From: Octopus vulgaris
Lineage: Eukaryota
DNA length: 64,000 nucleotides
Direction of reading: 5' to 3'
NCBI GenBank assembly: GCA_951406725.2
Contig: OX597816.1
Span: forward strand, 11,780,001-11,844,000
The first letter of the stretch is position 1. Each line of letters opens with the position of its first letter. Below, piece by piece: positions 801-63,356 of this stretch. A program made the translations under genes and the position numbers. The notes beneath the pieces were generated by a model, which did not search any database, was not told the DNA's origin, and saw nothing but the letters and a program-made list of their open reading frames with translations.

Positions 801-1742
801 TTTTGACTCTGTCCGTTATTTACACTGCTATTTATTCTTTTATTTATTGATACTTCTCCTTCAAAACCTTTTTCATTTTTGTCATCGTCAACAGAATTAT
901 CCTTCTTAATTAAAAAAAAACAAAACACAACACCCTCCTTGTCAAACCCTGATCTTCTCTGAAAACAAAAATGCATATTACATTTGGCAAATAATATTTT
1001 TAATTTTCTAAATTATCTCACAGCATTTTGTTGGCTAAAATTATTAGCATTGATAAAAATGAACAGTTATTCTCCACACGATAACAAATTCCTATTGATT
1101 TCAATTAAATTTTTCTAACAACTAGATTAAAAGATTATATTTGATGCACTGCTGGTCTCTTTCAAAAACATAATTTTCAAAAGGAAAACACATAAATGAA
1201 AAACAAGCGAATAATAAGAAATAAATAAGCATAAAAAACACAAGAAAGATATAAAAGTACTGACACTTTTTCCTGTTTTTATGCAGTTTTTTTAATCATA
1301 TTTCTACTAGTTGAAATTTGAGAAATGATTGCGAAATAAATATTATGCAGCGATGTTCAGTGTATTAACTAAAGATTACCGTGAATCAAAAATTTACTTC
1401 GTTTTTGAATGGAGTGTAAAATGATGGAATTGGCAAATATCTCATGTAACCTTTGAAATCTCTGTAATCTGCTGCATTTGATCATAGTGATTATAATCCT
1501 CTGATGCGAAATTCCTGCACTAACTGAATGGTAGAATTGTGCATCAATGCCAAATTTATGTCAGTGTTTAGTGCACTGGCATTATTATGCAACTATTCTT
1601 TTTACTTGAAATTATTTCAGAATAATTTTGACTTTGCAATAAAAAAAAAACTGAATTGAAAGCAAATACATAAAAAGCTTAACTTGTGTCACACATCGTT
1701 TCGCACACTTTATGCCCGTATGTGTGTGCCTGTGGGCATGAG

Positions 1743-1798
<56 letters not shown>

Positions 1799-1984
1799 AA
1801 AGAACATTAATACTTATGAGAGATATTAATGTTAGTAGCCGCAAGCTAAAACCATATAGGCAAAATCAGTAGATATATATTAAAAAAAATTATATATATA
1901 TATATAACAAGGGCTGGTGTCTTTTAAAAAAGTGCTCCTGTTATATATAATTCTTTTATATATATCTATTAATTTTGCCTATAT

Positions 1985-2130
1985 AGGCATAGGAGTGACT
2001 CTGTGGAAAGTAGCTTGCTTACCAACCACATGGTTCCAGGTTCAGTCCCACTGCGTGGTACCTTGGGCAAGTGTCTTCTACTATAGCCTTGGGCTGACCA
2101 AAGCTTTGTGAGTGGATTTGGTAGACAGAA
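1985..2130 (+). mobile_element. 5' part of CORE-type SINE (family C)
   Basis: Head ggcataggagtgactctgtgg...ggttcagtccca, then the CORE-like accttgggcaagtgtctt. Confidence 0.75.
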
Positions 2131-2222
2131 ATTTATTATTATTATTCAGGTCACTGGCTGGAATTGAACTCAGAATCTTGGGGTTAGTAGCCCTCGCTCT
2201 TAACCTCTACACTATATGGTCA
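2131..2222 (-). mobile_element. tRNA-like head of SINE family H followed by (AAT)n, tail missing
   Basis: Minus strand: tagtgtagaggttaagagcgagggctactaaccccaagattctgagttcaattccagccagtgacctgaataataat. Matches the heads at 52072, 54670 and 60000. Confidence 0.75.
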
Positions 2223-2499
2223 TGCTGTTGTTGTTGTCATTGCTGCTGCTATATGTATAATGAGGACACTGATTGAGTTCAGTAGTATATCGTTCTAGAG
2301 AATTCTCTTGGGAATTTTATGACTAGCTTCATCAATAAACATTTTGGACTTTTTTAAAAATATTTTTGTCCTTTGTTCTTGTTTTGAGAAGGAACCTAAC
2401 TTCAAGCAACTTTTTACAGATCAATTTTTAGACACTATTTTCTAAACCTGGCAAAGTATGTAAGGGGTGCAAATTTCGATTTTTATCCCCCTAAAACTT

Positions 2500-3388
2500 T
2501 TAATCAGTTAGGGATGCCAGTTAGCCTTTTACACCAATCAGGCTCATTCGTATTAGCCCAAGTTGCTGGATACTTTTTTGTTCCTTTAAGAATATTGTAG
2601 AACGGAAACTTTTCATTGACTGGAATTTCAATCCTAATCTCTCTTTTTACTTGTTTCAGTCATTTGATTGCAGCCATGCTGGAGCACCGCCTTTAATCGA
2701 GCAACTCGACCCCAGAACTTATTCTTTTGTAAGCCCAGTACTTATTCTATCAGTCTCTTTTTGCCGAACCACAAAGTAACGGGGACATAAACACACCAGC
2801 ATCGGTTGTCAAGCAATGCTAGGGGGACAAACACACTCACACAAACACACACACGCATATATATACACATATATACGACGGGCTTCTTTCAGTTTCCGTC
2901 TACCAAATCCACTCACAAAGTTTTGGTTGGCCCGAGGCTATAGTAGAAGACACCTGCCCAAGGTGCCAGGCAGTGGGACTGAACCCGGAACCATGTGGTT
3001 GGTAAACAAGCTACTTACCACACAGCCACTCCTGCGCCTATAGAAATTTTTTTTTTTATCTTTAAATTTTGAATTTGAATTACTTTTAATTTGTACGATT
3101 ATAGGTAACAACTCGGGCTGAAACTTCTGAGACTGAATCAGGCACATGAGAACAATGTCGAAAGAACATCTGCTATGAATGATATCTTTTGAAACAGAGC
3201 ACCTCTAAGACGGCCACCAGACACTGAACTGCAACCAGGCTCAATAAAAGGAGCCCGGGTTATTGGCTGCAATTACATAATTGAAGACAGTATTGGCACA
3301 AATTAAATCAGCTTGCAAATACACGTTCACTTTACTAAATTTATACTCGGTCTAAGCCTGAATAGCCTGAATGCCGGAGTCGCTACTG
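2500..3388 (-). mobile_element. Non-autonomous DNA element with hAT-like CAGT(A/G)GCG terminus, interrupted by a SINE
   Basis: 2500-2630 and 3060-3388 are the reverse complement of the uninterrupted copy at 40732-41185. Confidence 0.55.
2640..3041 (-). mobile_element. Full-length CORE-type SINE (family C)
   Basis: tRNA-like head, CORE-like motif, internal (TA/TG) microsatellite and tail ...gactgaaacaagtaaaaagag. Near-identical to 3827-4229. Confidence 0.85.
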
Positions 3389-3770: not shown

Positions 3771-3826
3771 CTAGAGATTTTTTCATGATCATTGAGAAAA
3801 TTAAGATAGGCGCAGGAGTGGCTGTG

Positions 3827-4229
3827 TGGTAAGTAGCTTGTTTACCAGCCACATGGTTCCGGGTTCAGTCCCCCTGTGTGGCAGCTTGGGCAAGTGTCTT
3901 CTACTATAGCCTTGGGCCGACCAAAGCCTTGTGAGTGGATTTGGTTGACGGAAACTGTAAGAAGCCCGTCGTATATATATATATATATATATATATGCAT
4001 GTGTGTGTTTGTGTGTCTGTGTTTGTCCCCCTAGCATTGCTTGACAACCGATGCTGGTGTGTTTATTTCCCCGTTACTTAGCGGTTCAGCAAAAGAGACC
4101 AATAGAATAAGTACTGGGCTTACAAAAGAATAAGTCCCGGGGTCGAGTTGCTCGATTAAAGGCGGTGCTCCAGCATGGCCGCAGTCAAATGACTGAAACA
4201 AGTAAAAGAGTAAAAAGAGAGTAAAAGAG
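3827..4229 (+). mobile_element. Full-length CORE-type SINE (family C)
   Basis: ggcgcaggagtggctgtgtggtaag...ggttcagtccc...ttgggcaagtgtctt...(TA)n...aagtaaaagag repeats. Further copies or fragments at 7105-7460(-), 38590-39250(-), 51570-51910, 56340-56560(-), 56612-56990, 59515-59905(-), 62510-63625 and 63662-64000. Confidence 0.85.
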
Positions 4230-9690: not shown

Positions 9691-9883
9691 CTGATACAAA
9701 CAAATGTGTTCTGAAGCAAAATTTGTTACGAAGATAAATAAAGTGTTAGACTGGTTTTTATATTGGATGTGTCTTCTATGTAGAATAAAAATAGTCAATA
9801 TAAACAATTGCAGCTTGGAAGGTGTTTATAAGCCATTTAAGAAACACAAAAACCATTAGATTCACTTCAGCATTTAAATTTAA

Positions 9884-9934
9884 TTTGTCAAAATATTTTC
9901 GTCGCTTTGAGACCGCGACCTGTTCACTGACAAA
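9884..9934 (-). ncRNA. Minimal type-I hammerhead ribozyme, G3-C8 core variant
   Basis: Minus strand: tttgtca GTGAACA g gtcgc ggtctcaaa gcgac GAAA ATAT T T tgacaaa. Stem I is 7 bp, stem II is 5 bp, stem III is palindromic AATATT. Confidence 0.7.
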
Positions 9935-9971
9935 ACTTCATGCTGCAAAACTTCGAGATAGAGTAGAAAGT

Positions 9972-10022
9972 TTTATCAGTGAATAGGTCGCGGTCTCAAA
10001 GTGACGAAAATATTTTGACAAA
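9972..10022 (+). ncRNA. Inverted, slightly decayed copy of the G3-C8 hammerhead
   Basis: tttatca GTGAATA g gtcgc ggtctcaaa gtgac GAAA ATAT T T tgacaaa (C8 changed to T). Confidence 0.55.
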
Positions 10023-10982
10023 CTAAATTTTAAATGTTGAAGTGAATCTAATGGTTTTGTGTGTTTCTTAAATGGCTTATAAACACCTTCCACGCTGCAA
10101 CTGTTTTCATTCCAGCACACGATCTCAGATCAAGTCACTCGCTGTGCAAGTACATCTCCGTAAGTCAATATAAAGTATCCTGTATATTATAAAGTAGATG
10201 TAGTGTTAGAATGCAAAATACTGGATCATTTACCATGAGAGAAACCTCTCACATGAACTCATTCTGCATATAGCACTCTTGTTTATATTACTAGTGAGAG
10301 ATAACCGCCTGCTACTGCTGCAGGAACTACTATTCACTTGATTTCAGCCTTCCTTTGCCTTGTCAATGGTAGATATCTACAGCTAGATTGAGCAGTGGTT
10401 TCTCCGTCAGCGATACATATAGAATCCCAATGTCTGGTCATTGGTCATGTACTGGTGCTGTAAATAGCCAGTGGGCTTATTAAAAAATAATTAACAGCGA
10501 CAGAAGCAGAATTAATACCAAAAGGTAATATTTATCCCCACTTAAAAGCAGATGATGTGTTAGAACACAGAATCCTGCATTATTTGCAATGAGAGAACCC
10601 CTCAAATAAACGTGGTGCATATAAGCACTTGTGTTTATATCGCCAGTGGGAGATAATCATCAGAATTATGTTTCAGAGAGCAATTAAACAAGTTTCTGGA
10701 AATATCAAATAGATGCTCACAGTTCCTTAACGTAACATTAGTCTGTAAAGGCATGTAGTTGTCAAAGCAACCAAAAGAAATTTTTTTTTAATTTTGTGCT
10801 GGTGGGGAAGGAGAAGATAAAAGGATTCCTAACCTCTGGGCCATTGTGGCTCCACTCTGATATATACGCACATAAATACATACATACATACATTCATAAA
10901 TACATACATATGTACATACATATATACATATCCCAGTATAAGAATATCGATCAGGTCATCAAATGCTGTAATACCCCACTGG

Positions 10983-14900: not shown

Positions 14901-15520
14901 CCCTTTCGTTACTATATTTCTGACCAAAATACACCCCTTATGTGTTTCAATTAATTTCTAACGTAATCATAAATTTAGTCTGGTTTCATTAAACAACAAT
15001 AACTTTTTTATTTATCGATATATTAATGTGATTTTTGGAAGATAATTTAATGAAATGTCCTCAACCAATTCTATACTATAATTTTTGTCACAAAGTGACT
15101 CTAATTGCAGGTAGATACAGGTAAATTCAACAATATATAAAATTATTAAAATGTTGTTCAAACATTGCTATAGAAAATGGGTTATTAGCTAATATTCAAT
15201 TGGGTATACAACAAAATTTTACGATAGAATTTGTTATTCTGGGTAACTTTCTGATACCCATAATAATATTTATGGCAAAATAGGCCTTAATTTCATTTAA
15301 GGTTGTGGGAAATAACAAACTATCCTTTCTTTCGCTTTGTTTACGTTTAGCGTAACGGTTCGTTTCCGCTGTAATGATTTCAAATAGGCTCATTCGAAAA
15401 AGTAAAAAGAAATAGTTTAAGGCTTTACTCTTCTGGGAAAGTCTGTGGCTTGGTGCAGTTTCTTCAGAAAAATCACCGAAAGAAACAGTTTTTAAATTTT
15501 CACTCCATTCAGGTGCCAAT
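14901..15520 (-). pseudogene. Internally deleted piggyBac: transposase fragment plus one terminus
   Basis: ORF 15196-15519 YFFLLFRMSLFEIITAETNRYA...PTTLNEIKAYFAINIIMGIRKLP is the PGBD/piggyBac N-terminal motif. TTAA|CCCTTT terminus at 14897-14906. Confidence 0.75.
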
Positions 15521-15689
15521 TCATTTTCTTAATCGCTGTCGGATTCACTGTTTTCACTTTAATAGCTGCAAACTTGCAAAGACAAAGGAGGAGAAGGGTG
15601 ATAGCGTCAGTGAAACAGTTCGCTCCGTTTGTGTGTGTGTGCGTTTGCGTGTGCTGTAGCTCACACTAAGAAAAACATTTGACATATAC

Positions 15690-15876
15690 ACCAGAATGTG
15701 AGTTTTCTCTAAATTTTGCTTAATTGGGGTTGAAATTTTAAAAACTGGACCTGGCACGACCCGATGCATTCTACTCTTAAAAATGCTAGGTAAATTGTAA
15801 TTGAAGAAATCCTATATTGTAGATTTCTATAAGATACAAAGGGAGGCAGATAAAATCTGCCTTTTATAATAAGAGA
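15690..15876 (-). mobile_element. Probable Helitron 5' end
   Basis: Minus strand begins A|TCtcttattataaaaggcag, the same style as the other Helitron 5' ends. No dedicated CTAG/hairpin end seen before 14395. Confidence 0.45.
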
Positions 15877-16076
15877 TAAGCATGAATAATAGGTTGATTG
15901 CCTATTTTGAGCTTATATCTTAATTCCTGTCTTTTGTCTCGAGTTCGACCCGAGCTCTTCTTAAGCAGTTCTATATATTTTGTAAGAAAGAATAATAATA
16001 TTATATGTATATAAGAATTTTTTGCATAAGGAGATAAAAAACCAAGGCTGTATAGATATTAGAGCATTTATAGATA

Positions 16077-16130
16077 GGTCTTACAGTTGTTTCTAGGATA
16101 TTAATTAATTATATCCCTTCATCGGCGATG
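16077..16130 (-). ncRNA. Decayed hammerhead-like motif
   Basis: Minus strand: CCGATGA agggatat aattaatta atatcct a GAAA CAACTG T A agacc. Stem II is good, stem I does not pair. Confidence 0.4.
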
Positions 16131-16324
16131 GTGTGAGAGGATAGTTAAGTCATAGTTAATTTGGGTATCAATGACACCATTATCTCTTATAACCTCAACT
16201 TCTCGCTAATACATATATATATATATATATATTTATGTGTAGGTCCCGGGTTGATTCGGGGTTAACCACAGTAAGTAAGGTACTCAATACATAGCAGAGT
16301 AAAATTAATTTATTATATAGAAGG

Positions 16325-16375
16325 AGCTTCTACAGGACTAGTACTGTTTCATTCAAGAGAAATCTTCAGGAAGCT
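16325..16375 (-). ncRNA. Type-I hammerhead ribozyme, left-arm copy
   Basis: Reverse complement of 20011-20061. Confidence 0.8.
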
Positions 16376-16822
16376 ATTTAACAAGAATTGTATTAGCATT
16401 TATACATTTAGGCAGGTTTAAAGGAGTGGTGGTGGGGGACTTTTTGGGGGTAGGCATAGCGCAAAATATCATACTTGGGGGAGTGGTCAAGGAGTCAGTG
16501 GTAAGTTAGATGAAAGAATAGATAAATAAAAAAAATAAAAAAATAGATAAATAAAAAAATAAAAAAATAAATAAAAAAATAAAAAAATAAAAATGAAAAA
16601 TAAAAAGATAAAATAAAAGAATAAAAAATAAAAAATATAAAAAATATATATAAAAAAAATATATATATAAAATATATATATATAAAAAAATATATATATA
16701 AAAAAAATATATATATAAAAAAAGGGGGGGATAGAGTTATAGGTAAATAAGGAGATTCTCACTTATACCTATACACACATGTATACGTATCTACACACAC
16801 ATACACACATACACATATATAT

Positions 16823-16877
<55 letters not shown>

Positions 16878-17293
16878 CCTACACATACACACATACATAC
16901 ATACAAATTTACATATACATATATATATATATACACAATCCAATACAGGCTCATTCCCTAATTTTAATTTTATTATCTTCATTTATTACTTTTGTTATCT
17001 TTGATCGCTAGGGCTAAGAATCCTGGCAGTGGCTGCCTGTCCATTTGTCTGTCTACTAGAAGGCAAGTACTCATTCCCGCACGCACACTCATTAGCACGT
17101 ACATTCACCCATTCGTACACTCATACACATACACGTACGCACGCGTTATATTCATACATACAAACATCTACATACGTTCACGTATATACACATACGTACT
17201 CGTACCTACAGATTCGTGTCTACACTTTAGGAGGCTAGTCTATACATATACACCAATAAATATACATATATATATATATACCCGCATATACAT

Positions 17294-17343
<50 letters not shown>

Positions 17344-17738
17344 ATATATATATATGTATGTGCTTGTATGTGTGTGTGTGTGTATATGTGTATATGTGTT
17401 TGTATGTATATGTGTATATATGTATATGCATATGTATGTGTAAATGTATGTGCTTATGTATGTGTATGTATGTATAAAATATTATATAATTAGGGCTTAG
17501 GAAAATAAAATAAATTACTTTGCCACATACTAAACTTTCTAGAAATAGCAGCCAATAAAGTTTTTTAGCCTCTTCCACTACTTAGAGAATTTTTTCCCTC
17601 TAACATTGTTTACTCAAAATAATAATGGTCCCTTTACATACTGAACACTTGATGAAATTGATTAATAACTAATTAACTTTACCCTCCCTTGTTGATATAT
17701 ATATACATATGTATATGTGTACATGTATGTATATATGC

Positions 17739-17784
<46 letters not shown>

Positions 17785-18059
17785 ATGTGTGTATGTATGT
17801 ATTTGTATATGTGTGTGTGTATATGTATGTGTGCGCGTGTGTGTGTATGTTTGTGTATGTATACTTGTATATGTATATGCATGAATGTATATATATGTGT
17901 GTGTATATGTGTATTATGTATGTATTTATATAGATATGTAGTTTATATATATATATGTATGTATATGCATCTGTCTGTGTGTGTGTATGTGTATATATGC
18001 GTATCATTTTTGCGTATGTATACATGTATATGTGTATATGTATGTGTGTGTGTGTGTGT

Positions 18060-18090
<31 letters not shown>

Positions 18091-18308
18091 TATATATGTG
18101 TATGTATATATATGTATATGCATACATATGTGTATGTACAGGTATATATGTATGTGTGTATATGTATATATGTTTATATATGTGAGTATGTAGTAATATA
18201 AGTATATGCATGTGTATGTATGGGTATGTGTATCAGTGTATATGTATATATGTATGTGTGTGTGTATGTATATGTATGTATATGTGTATATATGTATGTG
18301 TATATGTG

Positions 18309-18339
<31 letters not shown>

Positions 18340-18472
18340 GTGTGTATATGTGTGTACGTATGTGTATGTGTATGTATGTGTATGTATGTCTATATATGTA
18401 TATATATATGTATGTGTATATATATATGTGTGTATATGTATATATATATATATATGTATGTGTATGTATATG

Positions 18473-18503
<31 letters not shown>

Positions 18504-18785
18504 GAGTGCGTGTGTGTATGTATGCATATATGTATGTATGCATGTATATGTGTATGTATATATATGTGTGTAAGTGTGTGCATATATGTATTTGTAAGTA
18601 TGTGTGCGCGTATGAGTATGTATGTATGCTTGCACACGTGTATATATATATGTGTGTGTGTGTATATATATGGATGCGCGTGCGTGTGTGCACGTGTATG
18701 GGTACGCATGTATATGTGTATGTGTGTGTATGCGTATACGTGTATGTATGTATGTGTGTGCGTAGATTTGTATATGTATGTGTGA

Positions 18786-18822
<37 letters not shown>

Positions 18823-19010
18823 TATATATAGATGGGTGTGTGTATGCGTATAAATGCATGTAAGTATGGATGTATGGATGTATGTATGTATGTATGTATA
18901 CGTATGTATGTGTGTATGTGTGTATGTATATATATGTGTGTGTATATATGTTTGTGTATGTATATATATGTGTATGTATGTGTGCGTATATGTATGTGTG
19001 TAGGTGTATG

Positions 19011-19064
<54 letters not shown>

Positions 19065-19521
19065 GGTATGTATCTGTATGTAGGAGTATATATGTGTGTG
19101 TGTGTATGTATGTGCGGGTATATATATATATATGTATATTTATTGGTGTATATGTATAGACTAGCCTCCTAAAGTGTAGACACGAATCTGTAGGTACGAG
19201 TACGTATGTGTATATACGTGAACGTATGTAGATGTTTGTATGTATGAATATAACGCGTGCGTACGTGTATGTGTATGAGTGTACGAATGGGTGAATGTAC
19301 GTGCTAATGAGTGTGCGTGCGGGAATGAGTACTTGCCTTCTAGTAGACAGACAAATGGACAGGCAGCCACTGCCAGGATTCTTAGCCCTAGCGATCAAAG
19401 ATAACAAAAGTAATAAATGAAGATAATAAAATTAAAATTAGGGAATGAGCCTGTATTGGATTGTGTATATATATATATATGTATATGTAAATTTGTATGT
19501 ATGTATGTGTGTATGTGTAGG

Positions 19522-19572
<51 letters not shown>

Positions 19573-20010
19573 ATATATATGTGTATGTGTGTATGTGTGT
19601 GTAGATACGTATACATGTGTGTATAGGTATAAGTGAGAATCTCCTTATTTACCTATAACTCTATCCCCCCCTTTTTTTATATATATATTTTTTTTATATA
19701 TATATTTTTTTATATATATATATTTTATATATATATTTTTTTTATATATATTTTTTATATTTTTTATTTTTTATTCTTTTATTTTATCTTTTTATTTTTC
19801 ATTTTTATTTTTTTATTTTTTTATTTATTTTTTTATTTTTTTATTTATCTATTTTTTTTTTTATTTATCTATTCTTTCAACTTACCACTGACTCCTTGAC
19901 CACTCCCCCAAGTATGATATTTTGCGCTATGCCTACCCCCAAAAAGTCCCCCACCACCACTCCTTTAAACCTGCCTAAATGTATAAATGCTAATACAATT
20001 CTTGTTAAAT

Positions 20011-20061
20011 AGCTTCCTGAAGATTTCTCTTGAATGAAACAGTACTAGTCCTGTAGAAGCT
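20011..20061 (+). ncRNA. Type-I hammerhead ribozyme, canonical core, GUA cleavage site
   Basis: agcttc CTGAAGA tttc tctt gaat GAAA cag tactagtc ctg T A gaagct. Stem I is 6 bp and stem III is 4 bp with a palindrome-containing loop (ACTAGT). Predicted cut after A20055. Confidence 0.8.
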
Positions 20062-20330
20062 CCTTCTATATAATAAATATATATATATTTATATATATAT
20101 GTACACATACACATACTTACAGTAGTACCTCAGTTTTCAAACACCTCTGATTGGAGGGGTTGGCGTTTGGGTAGGTATCCCACCATAGAAAACCATGCCA
20201 AATCAGACTAGATCTTGGTGCAGCCACCTATAGTGCCAGCCCAGTCAAACTGTCCAACCCATACCAGCATGGACAACGGACATTAAATGATGATGATATC
20301 TATTGTGACTACATAACTAATTTCCCGTTT

Positions 20331-22314
20331 CAATTCATCAAGAAACAAAAACACAGCCCTAACTTCAACAAAAGAGAATGGAACGACCTCATCAAACTAA
20401 GAGAAGACAAAACAATAACAATTAAGGAGGCAGATAAGGGCAACGCGATAGTAATAATGAATACAAACAATTATAAAAATTTAGTGCTATCCCTATTAAG
20501 AGATGAAACGTATTATGAAAGGGCCCAACAGTATAACCAGCAAAAAATAATGCATAACCTTAGGACATTAATCAACACATACCAAGAAGGACTCACGAAC
20601 AAGGAGTATGAATACATCACTAACTTCAAATGCAAATCGAGTTTGTTCTATGGTATCCCTAAGGTACACAAAAGCCAAACCATTAGAGAAACGTGCAAAA
20701 CATCCACCGACACTCTCATCAAAATCCCTTCACCAAATGATCTTAAACTAAGACCGATAATAGCAGGGCCAGCATGTGAAACTCACCGCCTCAGCAATTT
20801 CTTAGACACACTTCTTAAACCTTTCCTAAAACACATCAAAAGCTACGTAAGAGACGATATAGATATGCTCAACCACCTCCTAAAACAGTCAATGAGAAAA
20901 CCCTTCTAGTATCATTCGACGTAGTTAATCTTTATTATAACATCCCTCACAACCTAGGAATAGAAGCGATCACCTTCTGGCTGAATAACTACCCCTTTGA
21001 ACTCCCAACTCGCATAAACAAAGACCTTATAATAGAAGGACTTAGATTCATTTTAGAGAACAATTATTTTATTTTTGACAATGATTTCTACAGGCAAAGA
21101 TCGGGAACAACGATGGGCACGCGTACTGCACCATCTTTTGCCAACCTAGTGATGGGATACCTCGAGAAAATACTATACCAGATGACACTCGAGAAATATG
21201 GAAACACCTTCGCCACCTATATCCATAACAACTGGAAAAGATACCTCGATGACTGTTTCATCATCTGGGACAAAGGCATAGAGAAACTTGAGGAATTTAA
21301 AATTCTATTAAATGGAATAAATGACAATATACAATTCACGATGGACCACAACGAAAAGAATTACCATTTTTAGACATCCTCATTAAGAAAACCGGCAACA
21401 AAATAGAGACAGATATCTACTATAAACCGACAGACTCTAAACAGTACCTACCCTTTGATTCATGCCACCCACGACACACTAGAATGAATGTCCCTTTTTG
21501 TTTAGCTAGAAGGATTTGCACCATAATATCAGACACAAACACCCGACACACACGTCTCCAGGAACTTAGAACCACACTCACAAATAGAAACTATCCACAG
21601 CCCCTAATAGACAGTGCAATCCAACGGGTACTTAAATTAAGTATAGAAGACCTGAGACAAACAAAACCAAAAAAGAAAGAACAATTAAAAACCCTTCCCT
21701 ACATCTCTACACACAACCCACTCAACAATGAGGCCTTCAACACCATACTACAAAGCACAGCCCTACTAAAGGGAGACCCAAAGATGAACCGGATCCTCGA
21801 AACACACACCATCATTAAAAGTAAACGGCAACCAAAATCCTTGAAAAGGATTTTAACCCAAGCTACACTGCACTCAACATTAACCACAAAACCAGCAGTT
21901 AGAAAATGTGGAAGGCCCAACTGCGGAATCTGTGTCATCTTGAAAGAAGGATCAGAATTTATACTGGAACAAGGCCACCAGTTCACCATTAGAACAAACT
22001 TCACCTGCGCATCAGAAAACTTAATTTACGTCATAACATGCGCAGACTGCAATAGGCAGTATATAGGCCATGCAAAAAATAGCTTACGTAACAGGATGGC
22101 GGTGCATAAATCACAAATTAGAAACCCTGATTACCGCAAAATACTGGTCAGCGGACACATAGATAGATGTGCTGGAAATGTAAATCCGAAATTTACAACT
22201 AACCCGCTCTATAAATTCAGTGACAACGCAACCTTCACACAACGCCAAAATAAAGAACTATATTTCATAAAAAAATTTAGACCAAGTTTAAACACCCTGG
22301 GCCAGGAATACTAA
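20331..22314 (+). pseudogene. Penelope-type reverse transcriptase + GIY-YIG endonuclease, frameshifts near 20880 and 21355
   Basis: IKEADKGNAIVIM, FYGIPKVHK, LRPII, LVSFDVVNLY, GTTMGTRTAPSFANLVMG, WKRYLDDCF, PFLD, YYKPT, SCHP, Cys linker CGRPNCGIC, and NLIYVITC..C..QYIG with R...H and E...I...LN. Confidence 0.92.
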
Positions 22315-22479
22315 AACAAAAGATAAGTCCTCCGAAAAGGAGAAGCAAAATTCCACCACGGCCGCTACTTCAAACAGACACTCACTCTGACGGAAATATG
22401 CCTTAGTAAAAAAGGAAAAAATTCTTTCGTGCAAATCTGACCCTGATACATACGATACAGCTAAGGGTCAGACCCGATT

Positions 22480-22880
22480 CTGATTGGTCAACAAGTTGAT
22501 GACGTCTAGCTCTGCTAGAATGGACAGGATACAAACAGGGGACAGTCATTAGTCAGAATATTGATGACGTCCTTTTCTGCTTGAATAGTCACCTAACAAG
22601 TACAGACAGGGGGCAGATCTAATGTAGCTATAAGTCGTGATTGGGCAGAATCTGGATGACGTCCCGCTCTGCTTGACTAACGAAGCGACTGGTCAAAACA
22701 GGAAACAAACAAGAGGCAGATATAATGCAGCGATTGGTCAAAATAATGATGACGTCCCGTTCTACTTGATTAAAGCCACCTAACGAAACGATTGGTCAAA
22801 ACATTGATGACGTCACGCTACGCTAGATTGACCACCTAACAGGCATTATAAAACCGAGCATTTCACAAAAACTCACTAGA
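22480..22880 (+). promoter_or_regulatory. Pseudo-LTR Pol II promoter: five ATT(G/A)G-N10-GATGACGTC modules, TATA box and Inr-like site
   Basis: TGACGTC at 22500, 22565, 22657, 22750 and 22808 (the last is a perfect TGACGTCA). TATAAAA at 22847 and TCACTA at 22873. Confidence 0.7.
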
Positions 22881-23175
22881 ACCACCCAGCGAACTTCCAC
22901 CATGGGTCATCACAGTTGCTTAAGGTAAAAATGAATTCCTCGCTCTTTCGGAAACATCAATCTTCTGTATTGACCGCTTTCCACCACTTTGATCTGTTTT
23001 TTGTATTGAATACGTATCGCCACCGTGGGCCACTGCATCGAACACTTTGAACATATACTTCAAACTATATATCAACTATACATGAACTATATATCAACTA
23101 TACATGAACTCTAAGATGTCTGACTCCGTTGTGTATTATAAATGAATTTCTTGTGTTTGACGGCATGAGCTGTCT

Positions 23176-23247
23176 TTTTTTATATATAACTTTTTTTGAT
23201 AAGGTTCATTTCAGGAACTGAAACATGTTATAATGTATATATAAAAA
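23176..23247 (+). ncRNA. Pseudo-LTR hammerhead, U3-A8 core variant
   Basis: TTGATAA ggttc atttcag gaact GAAA CATG T T ataat. Stem III is palindromic ACATGT. Stem I is AU-rich and imperfect. Confidence 0.55.
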
Positions 23248-23292
23248 TTAAAAATTGTATAATACAGCAGCATTTTCGAACTTCATTTTTTT

Positions 23293-23339
<47 letters not shown>

Positions 23340-23343
<4 letters not shown>

Positions 23344-23597
23344 TAAATTAGAGATAAAACCACTATTAGGCAAATCATACAATGAAAAACTTAAGCCAAT
23401 ACATAAGATTAATTAATTTATATTATTTTAAATATATATCAAAATTATTAAAAAAAGATAATTAGTGTTATACTAATTATCTTTTTTTAATAATTTTGAT
23501 ATATATTTAAAATAATATAAATTAATTAATCTTATGTATTGGCTTAAGTTTTTCATTGTATGATTTGCCCAATAGTGGTTTTATCTCTAATTTAATA
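23340..23597. repeat. Near-perfect AT-rich hairpin, arms about 125 bp
   Basis: tattaaattagagataaaaccactatt...gataattagt gttat actaattatc...aatagtggttttatctctaatttaata. A diverged partial third copy lies at 23755-23815. Confidence 0.92.
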
Positions 23598-23673
23598 TTA
23601 TATAATATTTTACTATAAAATTGGATTCAATCCTAAATCTGATTTTTCCCTGTAAGTTTGGATTTATTCCCTA

Positions 23674-23750
<77 letters not shown>

Positions 23751-24359
23751 ATTCGAGACAAAACCACTATTATGCAAATCAAACAAAGAAAGACTTAATC
23801 CAATACATAAAAAATTTTATATATATATATATATGCATATTCTCTGTTATATAATTAATGTGCAAGTCAACCTACAAACGTATGCCAACTTTAATTGAGA
23901 AGCGAAGACTTTATCAGGTAAACTTATACAGATTAGTAGTATTAGCTTATCTTCATTATCTTCATTAAATATCATTAGTTGTACTTCAATCCAAGCTGAA
24001 ATATATTCTGCTTAATATGAAGTGGATTAGTTATATAATAATACTTATCAAGATTAATCGTAATATTAGAACAGCCACTAATATGCAGGAATGGAATAAT
24101 TGTTGAACAATAATCTGGTTTAGAAATATCTGAAATATTCATAATACCAGACTGGCACAATTTTATTCGGTAGTCATTTATATAGAACAGATGTGAGATA
24201 AAACTTTAGGTTTAGCAATAGAAAGAAGATAGATGTAATAATATACAGGAGAAAAAAATGCTCTTTGATAAGAATGCAGCATTAGTCAAAAAATTCAATC
24301 CAAAAAGTTAATTGACAAAGGCACAGATTCATTTGATATACATGACTTCTTGTGATCAC

Positions 24360-48235: not shown

Positions 48236-48360
48236 ATCTATCTATCTTTCTATTAATGCCTATGTTTGCCTATCTGTCTATTTATCTCTATCTTTAATAA
48301 AAACATATAGAACCACATTTTGTTACTGTGTAAGTTTGAAATAATAATAATGATAATAGC

Positions 48361-49340
48361 ATATAAAAAATGACGTGGAGCCATGGTTGAAACACATGAA
48401 GAAGGCAGGCCTTATCAAAACTGAAAATTGTGTAACTAAAGAAAAATTTAAACAAGAAACTAAAAAAAAAAAACCTTGGAAGAAAGAGAAAATGTACGGT
48501 CAGTTTGCAAGAGATGTGAATGCCAAAACAGATACAGAGGACCGGTGGCTATGGATGAGGAGGAGTGACCTGAAGATAGAGACAGAAGCACTCATATGCG
48601 CAGCTCAGGAACAAGCATTAAGGACCAACTATATGAAGTCCAGAACAGACAACACTACTGACAGTGACAAATGCAGAATGTGTGGTGAGATGGATGAAAC
48701 GGTATGGCACGTCATTAACAAATGCTTGAAATTGGTACAACACTAATACAAAAGATGCCGTGACAATGTGGCAAGAATAATGTATTGGGAGCTCTGAGGA
48801 AATCATGGCCTTCAAAGAACAAAGGCACGGTATGAGAAAACTCCAGAGGGAGACATTGAAATTGGGAATTGCAAAATCCTGTGGGACGCAATGATCCAGT
48901 GCGATCATCTGACCAGACATCGGAAACCGGACATTGTTGTGGTAAATAAAAAAGAAAGAACATGCATGATAATCGATATAGCATGTCTCGGTGACAACAG
49001 GATCAATGTGAAAGAAGAGGAAAAAATAAACAACTATGACGATTTAAAGTGGGAAATACGAAGGTTGTGGTCAATGAAGAGAGTAGACGTGATACCAATA
49101 TTAATTAATGCGCTTGGAAGTATTAGCACTCAACTACCAACATGGCTCAAAAAGATTGGTGCAAGTGTTAAGATAGAACACCTAAAAAAATCAGCATTGC
49201 TTGGAACTACAAGAATTCTTCACAGGGTACTTGAAGCATGACCATTAAATAGGTGTTATCTTAGTCTGCTGGATGTGGACAGCTGACACTTTCCATGATA
49301 CCCAGCAAAATAAGCTGTGAGTTTTCATACTATAATAATA
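48361..49340 (+). mobile_element. 5'-truncated R4/Dong-type LINE: RT C-terminus, CCHC knuckle and restriction-like endonuclease, two in-frame stops
   Basis: ICAAQEQALRTNY, CRMCGEMDETVWHVINKC, YKRCRDNVAR, KPDIVVVNKKERTCMIIDIAC, EKINNYDDL, KSALLGTTRILHRVL. Flanked by (AAT)n on both sides. Confidence 0.88.
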
Positions 49341-52726: not shown

Positions 52727-52975
52727 CCATCCCTACAGGAAGTGCAAAAAATTGTGCTAACTGGAACGACACATGTACTGAGAAGAGTATTATCGCTGTG
52801 AAAACAACATCCATTCATGAATTTATTTATTTATTAATTTTTTAAATACATATTGTACCTGTGAATTTGTGTGTGTAATCGGGGAATGCATACAATGAGC
52901 ATCTCTGCCCTAGGTGTATGGAAAACACTCGGCGAGAAATGGAAGAAAATTTGAAGAAAAAATACAATAATAATA
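52727..52975 (+). mobile_element. Short 3' end of an R4/Dong-type LINE
   Basis: PSLQEVQKIVLTGTTHVLRRVLSL*, then a 3' UTR and (AAT)n. Confidence 0.75.
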
Positions 52976-53028
52976 ATAACATCGAAAATTACCTTAGGAA
53001 TGTGAACCCAGGTTCGAAATTTCCCCAA

Positions 53029-53074
53029 GACACCTGATGAAGGCTAGATGGTATATTAGCTGAAACGTTGTATT
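53029..53074 (+). ncRNA. Minimal type-I hammerhead in SINE-H tail (decayed)
   Basis: gacac CTGATGA a ggcta gatggtatat tagct GAAA CG T T gtatt. Confidence 0.6.
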
Positions 53075-53503
53075 AGCAACAAACAAGATGAGGACAAATA
53101 TCTGTCAAACGTAAATAATGTAAATAAGCGATTACACTTTGGCACATTGATCTACACAAAATTATTGGAAATGACAGTGACTGTGGTGTAACATATTACC
53201 TGATTCAACTTTCTTCATTATCAAGAAAGAATAAAATTGAAGACATGTCAGTTTGCTGTTGTCTCTTCGGTTTTGTATATTGAGTTGCCATTTATCTAAG
53301 ACACCAGAAAAGAAAACACAAAACAAAACATGAATACATCATGGGGGTAATAAGCTTCATAAGAATTGCTAAATATTTGATGATTTTCATGATTGTTCTC
53401 AGCTTGAAACTTGCTTAACAATATTCTTCTAGCTTGATGCATTTCTTCGTCATTGCAACACATCAATACAGTCATCTCATTGTATGTAGACAAATTTATA
53501 CCT

Positions 53504-54420: not shown

Positions 54421-54579
54421 ATGTGTATTATTTACATTATTTACATTTGACGGATATTTGTCCTCACCTTGTTTGTTGTTAACACAAACGTTTCGGCTGA
54501 TATATCCTCCAGCCTTCATCAGGTGTCTTGGGGATATTTCGAATCTGGATTCTCATTCCTAAAGTATTTTTTGATGTTA

Positions 54580-54749: not shown

Positions 54750-54795
54750 GAATGAGAACCTTAGGAATGAGAACCCAAGTTCGAAATTTCCCAAA

Positions 54796-54841
54796 GACAC
54801 CTGATGAAGGCTGGAAGGTATATCAGCCGAAACGTTGTGTT
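54796..54841 (+). ncRNA. Minimal type-I hammerhead in inverted tail copy
   Basis: gacac CTGATGA a ggctg gaaggtatat cagcc GAAA CG T T gtgtt. Stem III is palindromic ACGT, with a GUU site. Confidence 0.75.
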
Positions 54842-56575
54842 AACAACAAACAAGATGAGGACAAATATCCATCAAATGTAAATAATGTACATAATTCCTC
54901 ATCTCTGAAATATAGAACTGATCTGGATGTGTGTTCTGAAATATTTTACTTCTGATGAATCAATTCTGTTGTAGTTCATTGGGTAAATCTGGAACTCCTT
55001 GAGTACGGATTAAACCAGATTTACAACGTACACCAAAATCAGGATAGGCTAATGTTCCTCGAGTATGCTCTTTACTACTTGTGCTGCAATGACTGCTATT
55101 AAACCATAAGCATGAAGTGTCACATTGACTGCGACATCTAGTACTGAATCTATGTAATGCTGTCTCGAAACATTCAACATCCTGCTTTGTATGTTTTAAC
55201 GCTTAATTCCTATCCTAAGCTATTAACTGCCGTCTTTGTTCTTGAAAAAAATCAATGGCGTGCTGGATGACGTTACTTAGTATCATGATATGAAATCTGT
55301 TTACATTGCTTTTTTGGAACTTAATGCTGTTCAGTATTTTGTATCAACATACATTCATGCAGCTATCAAGAGAGTTCTTTCTGTGGTTCTCCAAAGTGTT
55401 GCACATTTTGAGCCACAAGTTCTTGCTACTCATCAGAAAGAGTTTCCTATTCTCTTTATTGCATAGCATCTTGTTTCAGAATATGTTCATGATGTTCACG
55501 AGAAACTTGTTCTACCTGCATACGTTTCACAGCATTTCAGCCAAAATGCATCCTTGCTTCTTTCCTGAGAGTTCTTTCTGTGCTTCTGATTAGTGTGGAG
55601 GCACAATGGCCCAGTGGTTAGGACAGCGGGCTCGAGGGTGTAGGATCATGGTTTTGATTCCCAGGCCGAGCATTGTCAGTGTTTTTTGAGTGAAAACACC
55701 TAAAGCTCCATGAGGCTCTGGCAGGGGGTCGGTGGCGATCCCTGCTGTACTCTTTCTCCAAAACTTTCTCTCACTCTTTCTTCCTGTTTCTGTTGTACCT
55801 GTATTTCAAAGGGGCCAGCCTTGTCGCACTCTGTGTCATGCTGAATCTCCCTGAGAACTACATTAAGGGTACACGTGTCTGTGGAGAGCTCAGCCACTTG
55901 CACATTAATTTCACGAGCAGGCTGTTCTATTGATTGGATCAACTGAAACCCTTGTCACCATAACCAATGGAGTGCCACAAAAATCCCTGATCAATATTTT
56001 ATATTTTTGAACCCCAATGCATTCTAGCTGCTCTTGGGAAAGTTGCACATGTGCTTGTCTTCCCCAAAGTGCATTCAGTTGATTTTTTCCCTTTCAGCTT
56101 CATTGACTCCTTGTCTCTTTGTTGCTTTTTATTGCATTGTTGCTGTTTCCCTGCCACAAATTTTGCACTGCTCATTTATATTTGATCATTCATTAAGTGA
56201 AATGTCAAAATGTGTTTCAACCGGCTGCAGTTAACGACAGAAAAAGTATGTAATCGAAATATATCCATTGCTTAACGCATTCTGGTTGCACATGATGTCA
56301 ATACGGATTTGATGTATTATTTCATAAATAGTACATTGATCTTCTTTATTTTATCTTTTTTACTTGCTTCAGTCAGATGATGTCTCTGGCCATGCTTGGG
56401 CATCGTCTTGAAGGGTTTGCTTGAAGAAATCAGCACCAGAACTTAATTTTGGGCCTCCTTTGTTGCACCGCTAAATTACGGGGATGTAAACAAACCAACT
56501 TTGTTATGTGGTGATAGGAGACAAACATAAACACAAAGTCATACATACACAAACACACACACATACACACGCCAT

Positions 56576-61502: not shown

Positions 61503-62799
61503 TACACTTTTTACTAAAATCAAAATTATAAAGTGAGGGTGTCACAGCAAAATTTTTTTCCAGCTTATTAAAATTTTGCTCTCTAAATCAAAGAGCATAT
61601 TACATATTATTTCTACTGGAAGTACAGGCCTTAAATTTGGGGGAAGAGATTAAGTCGATTACATCAACTCCAGTGCGCAACTGGAACTTATTTAATCAAC
61701 CCCGAAAGGATGAAAGGCAGGGTCGACCTCGGTTGAATTTGAACTCAGAACATAGTGACAGCCAAATTACCGCCAAGCATTTTGCCCGGCGTGCTAACGT
61801 TTCTGCCAGCTTGCCACCTGGAAAAGTATATTAAATATAGTTGCTTATTATTTGCGGATTTCTATAATACTTTATTTTCAATTATTTAAGACATTATCGG
61901 ATTTGCGACTCATTCAATTTTGGATAAAACACGTGACCTACTAATGGAATATTATAATGTTTATCTTCATTACACTCATTATAATTTTTAATATTTCATT
62001 AATGAAACAAATAAACTTTAAACAGATTCTGTTGTAATAAGCGAATGGAGCAATTACCGATAACATAACACTTGTGTGTGCAAACATATTTTTCTGTCTG
62101 TAAATATTAATTCGAAAATATTTTAACACATGTTAATATCTCTGTCAATATATGTATACTCATAAATGTTACATATTTATTATTACACAATTCTCTTAAC
62201 GTAAATGACTATTATTTCCAATTTTCACTATGTAAACATCTTTAATCTTAGCGGAATGAGTGTTTTGATTATGAAAGCCGTGCAAGTTTACCAGTTTGTG
62301 CGTCATCAGCAAGTGATGGCATCGTAAGTTTTACGGTTCTTGATAGAATCTGTATTAGCGCTATATAAACATAGGTGGATATAAATATTAACATATTAAG
62401 TATTGTATTAGTACTGATAAATTAAAGTTGAGGATTGCCAGCTTAAATTGTAAACAGATTACTTATAAGAATTATGTGTACATACAGTTGTGGGCGTAGC
62501 TGCATATATAGGCTCAGGTGTGACTGGGTGGTAAGAAGTTTGCTTCCTAAATACATTGCTCCAAGTTCAGTCCCACTGCCTGGCAAATTGGGAAAGTATC
62601 TTCTGCTATTGCCTTGAGCCAACCAAATTCTTGTATGCGGACTTAGTAGATGGAAGCCGAAAACATCATGTCGTGAAACCTAAAAAGCACCATTCAAGTG
62701 TGATCGTTTTTCACATGCCTTCCTGGCACATGAAAAAACATTCGAGCAAGGTCGTTGCCAGTGCCACAGGACTGGCTCCTGCGTATGTGGCATGTAAAA

Positions 62800-63197
62800 A
62801 AACACCATTTGAGCGTGGCCGTTAACAGTACCACCTGACTGGCCCTCGTGCTGGTGTCACGTAAAAGCACCATTTGAGCGTGGCCGTTAACAGTACCACC
62901 TGACTGGCCCTCGTGCTGGTGGCACGTAAAAGCACCATTTGAGCGTGGCCGTTAACAGTACCACCTGACTGGCCCTCGTGCTGGTGGCACGTAAAAGCAC
63001 CATTTGAGCGTGGCCGTTAACAGTACCACCTGACTGGCCCTCGTGCTGGTGGCACGTAAAAGCACCATTTGAGCGTGGCCGTTAACAGTACCACCTGACT
63101 GGCCCTCGTGCTGGTGGCACGTAAAAAGCACCATTTGAGCGTGGCCGTTAACAGTACCACCTTACTGGCCCTCGTGCTGGTGGCACGTAAAAGCACC
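62800..63197 (+). repeat. Six tandem 65-bp units inside a family-R SINE
   Basis: gttaacagtacc at 62821, 62886, 62951, 63016, 63081 and 63147. Confidence 0.95.
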
Positions 63198-63356
63198 CAC
63201 TACACTCTCGGTGTGGTTGGCATTAGGAAGGGCATCCAGCTTTAGAAACTCTGCCAGATCAGATTGGTGCCTGGTGCAGCCATCTGGTTCACCAATCCTC
63301 AGTCAAATCATCCAACTTATGCTAGCATAGAAAGCAGATGTTAATTGATGATGATG

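Follow-up and report, generated by a model that had tools for sequence, protein, structure and literature searches.

Between positions 16238 and 20078 of the 64,000-nucleotide stretch of Octopus vulgaris DNA analysed here (the window), a 3.8-kb structure carries a candidate hammerhead ribozyme near each outer end, and we asked what kind of event produced it and whether it is related to the Penelope-like element (PLE) beside it. A sequence-only reading had described an inverted duplication with near-identical arms of about 1 kb, and alignment of 16308-17308 with the reverse complement of 19087-20078 confirmed this, giving 987 matches, 1 substitution and 3 small indels (99.9% identity, indels aside). 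The duplication had been drawn from 16238; the arms themselves begin at 16308, and 16238-16307 has no counterpart in the right arm and forms a one-sided tail. The parts of the locus and its right-hand surroundings are as follows.

16238-16307, minus strand: tail, a one-sided 70-bp extension that continues past the short 3′ end, is confined to the left arm and is itself multi-copy
16308-17308, minus strand: left arm, an inverted 5′-truncated copy, from the arm alignment
16325-16375, minus strand: type I hammerhead motif, left copy (core from 16369, predicted cut after 16331)
17305-17330, no strand assigned: (TA)n run at the inversion point, a self-complementary microhomology where arm identity stops and the TG/CA strand bias flips
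17309-19086, plus strand: unduplicated spacer of 1.78 kb, likely the 5′ part of the main copy, assigned by a TG-rich strand bias like that of the right arm
19087-20078, plus strand: right arm, the 3′ part of the main copy from the arm alignment, whose end, the short 3′ terminus, lies on (TA)n
19879-20078, plus strand: pLTR-like end with a C-rich stretch, TATAAA at 19982 (putative promoter), hammerhead and AATAAA at 20072, its sequence matching the multi-copy segment 16308-16506 exactly
20011-20061, plus strand: type I hammerhead motif, right copy (core from 20017, predicted cut after 20055)
20151-20297, no strand assigned: dispersed-repeat fragment outside the insertion, which has 8 or more further matches across the window
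20295-23296, plus strand: decayed PLE with RT and GIY-YIG domains, outside the insertion and of a different family, with its own 3′ region and hammerhead motif

The sole substitution between the arms lies at 17287/19112. The indels comprise 4 bp at 16507-16510, a difference that had already been noticed and that we recovered, 5 bp within an A-rich tract, and a 4-bp difference in the length of the main (TA)n run, at 42 nt in one arm and 38 nt in the other. The earlier statement that (TA)n lengths differ thus holds for this main run but not for the remaining six TA runs listed, which have the same length in both arms. Most arm differences fall in slippage-prone repeats; the substitution and the 4-bp indel at 16507-16510 lie outside simple-repeat tracts. 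Of the left arm's 1001 bp, 468 (~47%) are simple repeat, and the spacer consists of TG/TA microsatellite together with ~220 bp of non-repetitive AT-rich DNA (17477-17695). A (TA)n run is present at all three junctions, that is, at both outer ends and at the inversion point, and the tail adjoins the one at about 16212-16235.

The element's sense strand is TG-rich, and along the plus strand the sequence is CA-rich to ~17300 and then TG-rich through the right arm, the 220-bp non-repetitive stretch being the exception. Because of this bias, the main copy likely lies on the plus strand at ~17309-20078 (2.8 kb), and the left arm with its tail (1.07 kb) is likely the inverted copy. The strand bias and the arm alignment both support the proposed plus-strand main copy with an inverted 5′ copy, and the length moves from the 2.4 kb first suggested to about 2.8 kb. 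With one substitution in 988 bp the insertion is recent, as had been supposed. If the rate given for octopus repeats applies (a JC distance of 0.09 for 25 My; PMC13282606), and if no gene conversion has occurred, the sequence divergence suggests an age below ~0.8 million years.

We next considered the coding content. A tblastn comparison of 103 PLE proteins against 16238-20120 detected no homology (best E 0.11), in keeping with the description of the arms as non-coding and microsatellite-rich, and long microsatellite frames were rejected as coding. A protein search with the antisense frame of the inner arm gave zero candidates and was uninformative, and a scan of metagenome and viral contigs by exact pattern returned 0 loci. 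Because an ORF with RT and GIY-YIG domains is absent from it, the insertion is a derivative or a truncated copy and no autonomous PLE. On one account, the main copy could derive from an autonomous PLE, cut short before reaching the ORF and so made up of the long non-coding 3′ end alone, and the family would then not be non-autonomous. Heavy 5′-truncation is indeed typical of PLE insertions (PMC8557442), but this account requires a microsatellite-rich 3′ UTR of more than 2.8 kb, against about 1 kb in the neighbouring PLE, and 16238-20120 holds no remnant of RT or endonuclease; we regard it as unlikely.

The neighbouring PLE had been proposed as a relative of the structure, a link that our comparison did not bear out. 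Its segment 20295-22314 encodes RT and GIY-YIG domains with two frameshifts and aligns at 55-63% identity with residues 90-752 of a 753-aa relative, and the names found among PLE relatives are those of molluscs and corals only. In the translated frame, a C-x4-C-x2-C linker precedes the C-terminal GIY-YIG domain and fits the CX2-5CxxC motif of Neptune/Nematis. Its 3′ region of about 1 kb ends near 23296, contains short sub-repeats at 22545-22840, and carries its own hammerhead (23196-23235, plus strand) of the minimal type with a U3-A8 covariant core, as reported in PMC4209133. Compared with the arm, the 3′ end of this PLE showed no similarity (94 of 300 shuffles score as high), and for lack of similarity the right arm was also rejected as its upstream pLTR. 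A simple repeat and the fragment at 20151-20297 separate the two. The PLE lies nearby in a repeat-dense region and is not a demonstrated parent of the structure, for which no autonomous partner was found.

Other repeats crowd the same region. We take the 20151-20297 fragment to be SINE-like, a guessed label. A near-perfect palindrome of ~280 bp (23329-23608, 97% self-complementary) follows the (TA)n at the PLE 3′ end and is partly repeated at 23703-23810, and a second palindrome of ~305 bp lies at 9802-10106 (88% self-complementary); both are possibly foldback MITEs. Just left of the insertion lie two further very high-copy repeats, 15660-15878 and 16010-16165. Many copies of the former end on the (TA)n at 15878. 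In each of the sequencing runs X1 and X2 a single contig joins 15878 directly to 16316, but with 23 letters on one side this joint is weak and was set aside as evidence. Elsewhere, the window holds another inverted pair of a dispersed repeat (2645-3050 and 3797-4207; 412 bp, 91% identity) and, at 62733-63257, a tandem array of about 6 copies of a 65-bp unit (98% identity) inside a dispersed repeat. Two overlapping frames at 48360-49241 (plus strand) resemble the C-terminal end of a restriction-like-endonuclease non-LTR retrotransposon.

To profile the abundance of the outer end, 15660-16515 was used as the query of a run search, which returned 24 runs, 20 of them with part of the query, from 10 studies and 4 organisms; none of the listed runs contains more than 0.63 of the query words. 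The contigs of 4 of these 20 runs, representing 3 samples and 2 organism labels, were then aligned to the same stretch (17,080, 6,325, 1,139 and 198 aligned contigs per run). In X1 the summed depth was 0.2-2.9 million over 16240-16515 compared with 1,200-3,000 over 15892-15978, and the shallow run X11 covered the element and left 15892-15978 uncovered, a segment that the deep run X2 covers in the same sample. Contigs piled onto the tail (16240-16307) in 4 of the 4 aligned runs. Over the stretch tested, 16240-16515, the outer 278 bp therefore belongs, together with the tail, to a repeat family of very high abundance, and this pile-up supports the sequence-only interpretation as far as the outer part of the arm is concerned. 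Summed depth gives no copy number, and the intended single-copy baseline, 15660-16205, itself consists of repeats; a bracket of about 1,000-40,000 copies, which assumes that the listed low-depth contigs (median 33-38) are single copy, is to be read as 'very many' only. Run X12, only guessed to be RNA, contains all repeats of the stretch and is uninformative on transcription; its depth is higher 3′ of the predicted cut, and contigs cannot rank parts.

The same alignments locate the ends of other copies. In X11, at least 2 contigs at 16304 and at least 4 at 16308 leave the reference and enter (TA)n, that is, other copies of the family stop on (TA)n where the right arm stops. At least 7 variant positions are listed in 16240-16515, none of those listed falling in the invariant core or helices of the hammerhead, and among them are one at the free N7 base and one in loop 3. 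At 16342, 16377, 16395 and 16425 a different base accounts for most of the summed depth in X1 and X2, and both arms keep the base of the locus. Since the arms are identical over 16308-16506, including these four minority-base positions, both derive from one template.

How far the family extends inward bears on a second reading of the same PLE-made insertion, according to which host DNA from one donor locus, carried by a read-through transcript that ended in a short pLTR, makes up the spacer and the inner 0.8 kb of each arm, the family proper measuring only 300-500 bp. The multi-copy evidence is confined to the outer part, the inner part resembles the microsatellite-rich background of the window, and PLEs can mobilise host RNA in trans (PMC8557442). 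The depth in X2, however, stays at 1.0-1.4 million across 16356-16500 with no fall toward 16500, and the family thus reaches at least the edge of the tested stretch. We hold this donor-flank origin as a tentative possibility. Because the right arm lacks the tail, the template was probably other than this locus.

We consider it probable that the 3.8-kb structure is a single recent insertion by PLE machinery into a (TA)n site, made from a non-coding template RNA. The anatomy described above, the multi-copy outer 278 bp and the existence of two alternative 3′ ends are established by the data. In published descriptions, many PLE insertions bear an inverted 5′-truncated copy at their 5′ end and a tail at one end, PLEs have a hammerhead in the pLTR, and (TA)n targets are described for Naiads (PMC8557442). 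Correspondingly, this locus presents the inverted pLTR arrangement, a tail at one end with two 3′ termini (16304/16308) and a hammerhead motif in the pLTR, and dispersed multiple copies were found for 16240-16515; the layout and the multi-copy outer part both support the PLE-type origin first proposed. With a purified PLE protein, both strands of the target are nicked and extended, AT-rich DNA is favoured, and reverse transcription begins at two sites bounding the tail (PMC11167929).

For the joining step we infer two nicks. A PLE RT-endonuclease, supplied in trans, would nick both strands of the (TA)n target. The first nick would prime cDNA synthesis at the inner start site (20078), with about 2.8 kb copied, and the second would prime from the outer start site, which lies 70 nt further 3′ at 16238 and would yield the tail, with about 1.07 kb copied; the two cDNAs would then be joined at the (TA)n run 17305-17330, which is self-complementary. 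Because both cDNAs begin near the RNA 3′ end, the product would be an inverted duplication whose hammerheads face outward, and the arm indels would reflect later microsatellite slippage. A literature search for PLE 'twin priming' returned no title on PLE mechanism. No host function is necessary to explain the structure.

The junctions themselves raise the question of an assembly foldback or mis-join of one real copy. PLE structures of this layout trouble assemblies (PMC8557442), no contig of the four runs spans the outer junctions or the inversion point (contigs only, 16202-16246 skipped), and most arm differences sit in slippage-prone repeats. An artefact of this kind is nevertheless very improbable given the 1.78-kb non-palindromic spacer, arms that end at two different points, one of them a terminus used by other copies, outer ends that each lie on their own (TA)n, and the substitution and 4-bp indel outside simple-repeat tracts. 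A further rival is a pair of independent head-to-head insertions, or an inverted duplication that arose later at the DNA level through repair or a foldback during replication, with gene conversion perhaps having homogenised the copies. In its favour, the family is abundant and favours (TA)n, and the window's other opposite-strand hammerhead pair reaches no more than 91% identity. The arms here, however, are more alike outside indels than many family contigs, which are 90-99% alike to the locus copy, and a DNA-level duplication leaves the tail on the left copy alone unexplained; we judge this pair of scenarios quite unlikely. A single insertion by PLE machinery remains our preferred explanation.

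We then examined the hammerheads, which had been called canonical. The two motifs are identical and face outward, one per strand. In the right copy, helix I is formed by 20011-16/20056-61, helix II by 20025-27/20032-34 on a U·U, and helix III by 20039-42/20051-54. The conserved core and NUH site are present in silico, helix I has 6 bp, and helix III has 4 bp and an 8-nt loop with a 6-nt palindrome. To this extent the term 'canonical' stands; helix II does not fit it, as it has U·U at 10.1-11.1 followed by 3 bp in place of a stable helix closed by G10.1-C11.1. Its pair probability is ~0.1, and the active fold, at -7.3 kcal/mol, is 1.2 kcal/mol less stable than an alternative in which core bases are captured (-8.5 kcal/mol). 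The predicted cut lies 23 nt from the arm end in each arm, in agreement with the earlier placement of a hammerhead about 20 bp from each outer end, followed by AATAAA. A structural descriptor found 3 matches across the window, whereas 100 shuffled versions averaged 0.01 each, an optimistic contrast given that the descriptor was written after the motif was seen. The Rfam hammerhead models gave no match at gathering score in the whole window, hammerhead was absent among 131 matches at E<=10 in 15500-23800, and matches to Rfam miRNA families, far below gathering score, were rejected as microsatellite artefacts.

The axolotl retrozyme HHR_Amex2 likewise has U·U at the helix II base, and its monomer cleaved 22% in an hour and its dimer much better (PMC7229834). 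The hammerheads here are probably inherited parts of the pLTR and are likely weak as monomers. A 2014 study already described hammerheads paired on opposite strands in PLE remnants (PMC4209133), with the same type I motif and palindromic loop 3 in truncated copies. Those pairs are about 100-700 bp apart as described there, whereas the hammerheads at this locus are 3.7 kb apart; helix III is 4 bp here and not minimal, and the conserved G10.1-C11.1 pair is missing. A second hammerhead repeat family, of the minimal type with an extra base after position 9, occurs in the window as an opposite-strand pair (54427-54565, minus strand; 54758-54895, plus strand), ~190 bp apart, 91% identical and beside (TTA)n, its copies diverging after a common 3′ end; a third copy lies at 52966-53127 (plus strand).

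The label 'retrozyme-like' does not hold in its defined sense. Metazoan non-LTR retrozymes share with this locus a non-coding nature, a type I hammerhead, low GC and a proposed PLE origin, but they are described as tandem units of 150-450 bp with at least 2 same-strand hammerheads and circRNA (PMC7229834; bioRxiv 10.64898/2026.07.22.740005). We rejected membership, as the locus has one hammerhead per strand, no tandem same-strand hammerhead units, and kb-long copies (1.07 and about 2.8 kb). In one X1 contig (depth 30.7), from another copy, the 62-nt hammerhead segment (16375 to 16314) is apparently repeated in tandem in a retrozyme-like manner.

Among the closest described systems are the endonuclease-bearing PLEs (Penelope/Poseidon, Neptune, Nematis; PMC8557442), which have the same inverted 5′-truncated copy and one-sided tail and likewise a hammerhead near the 3′ end and a microsatellite target. 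Unlike these, as they are described there, the locus has neither an ORF nor a direct (partial tandem) pLTR, and its tail, at 70 bp, exceeds the published 30-40 bp. Non-autonomous Chlamys elements, MRC1 among them, are likewise non-coding PLE derivatives with pLTRs; they differ in belonging to green algae and to the N-terminal-endonuclease clade, in the absence, in that account, of canonical hammerheads, and in head-to-tail copies (PMC8557442). The origin of the structure is likely an ordinary one, every feature already figuring in the published description of PLE insertions. The word 'hammerhead' has no occurrence in the main text of the O. vulgaris repeat paper, whose repeat libraries or supplements may already list the family, and a search of the literature on octopus hammerhead ribozymes gave no title describing the family at this locus.

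With respect to RNA, the two putative pLTR promoters face outward and alone would not make a fold-back transcript. A transcript reading through the locus is predicted to fold back and to sequester the hammerheads, because the fold-back is far more stable than the hammerhead fold (predicted -156 kcal/mol for the outer 93 bp of duplex alone compared with about -8 kcal/mol).

Taken singly, the locus matters little, since its features are already in published PLE descriptions. It is, however, young and clean enough for the target, the inversion point and the two RT start points all to be read from it, and the two-nick model for PLE inverted copies is testable across many copies. A larger proposition combines an undescribed, very abundant family of kb-long non-coding PLE derivatives in molluscs, likely octopus, bearing a hammerhead with a full helix III, with routine kb-scale inverted-repeat insertion by two-start priming, a major contribution to hyper-edited long dsRNA, and fold-backs that silence the family's own ribozyme; as a whole it is improbable at present. 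dsRNA load tracks with hyper-editing in octopus (PMC5625713), and if the family makes many kb-long inverted repeats in transcribed regions, it would add to that load.
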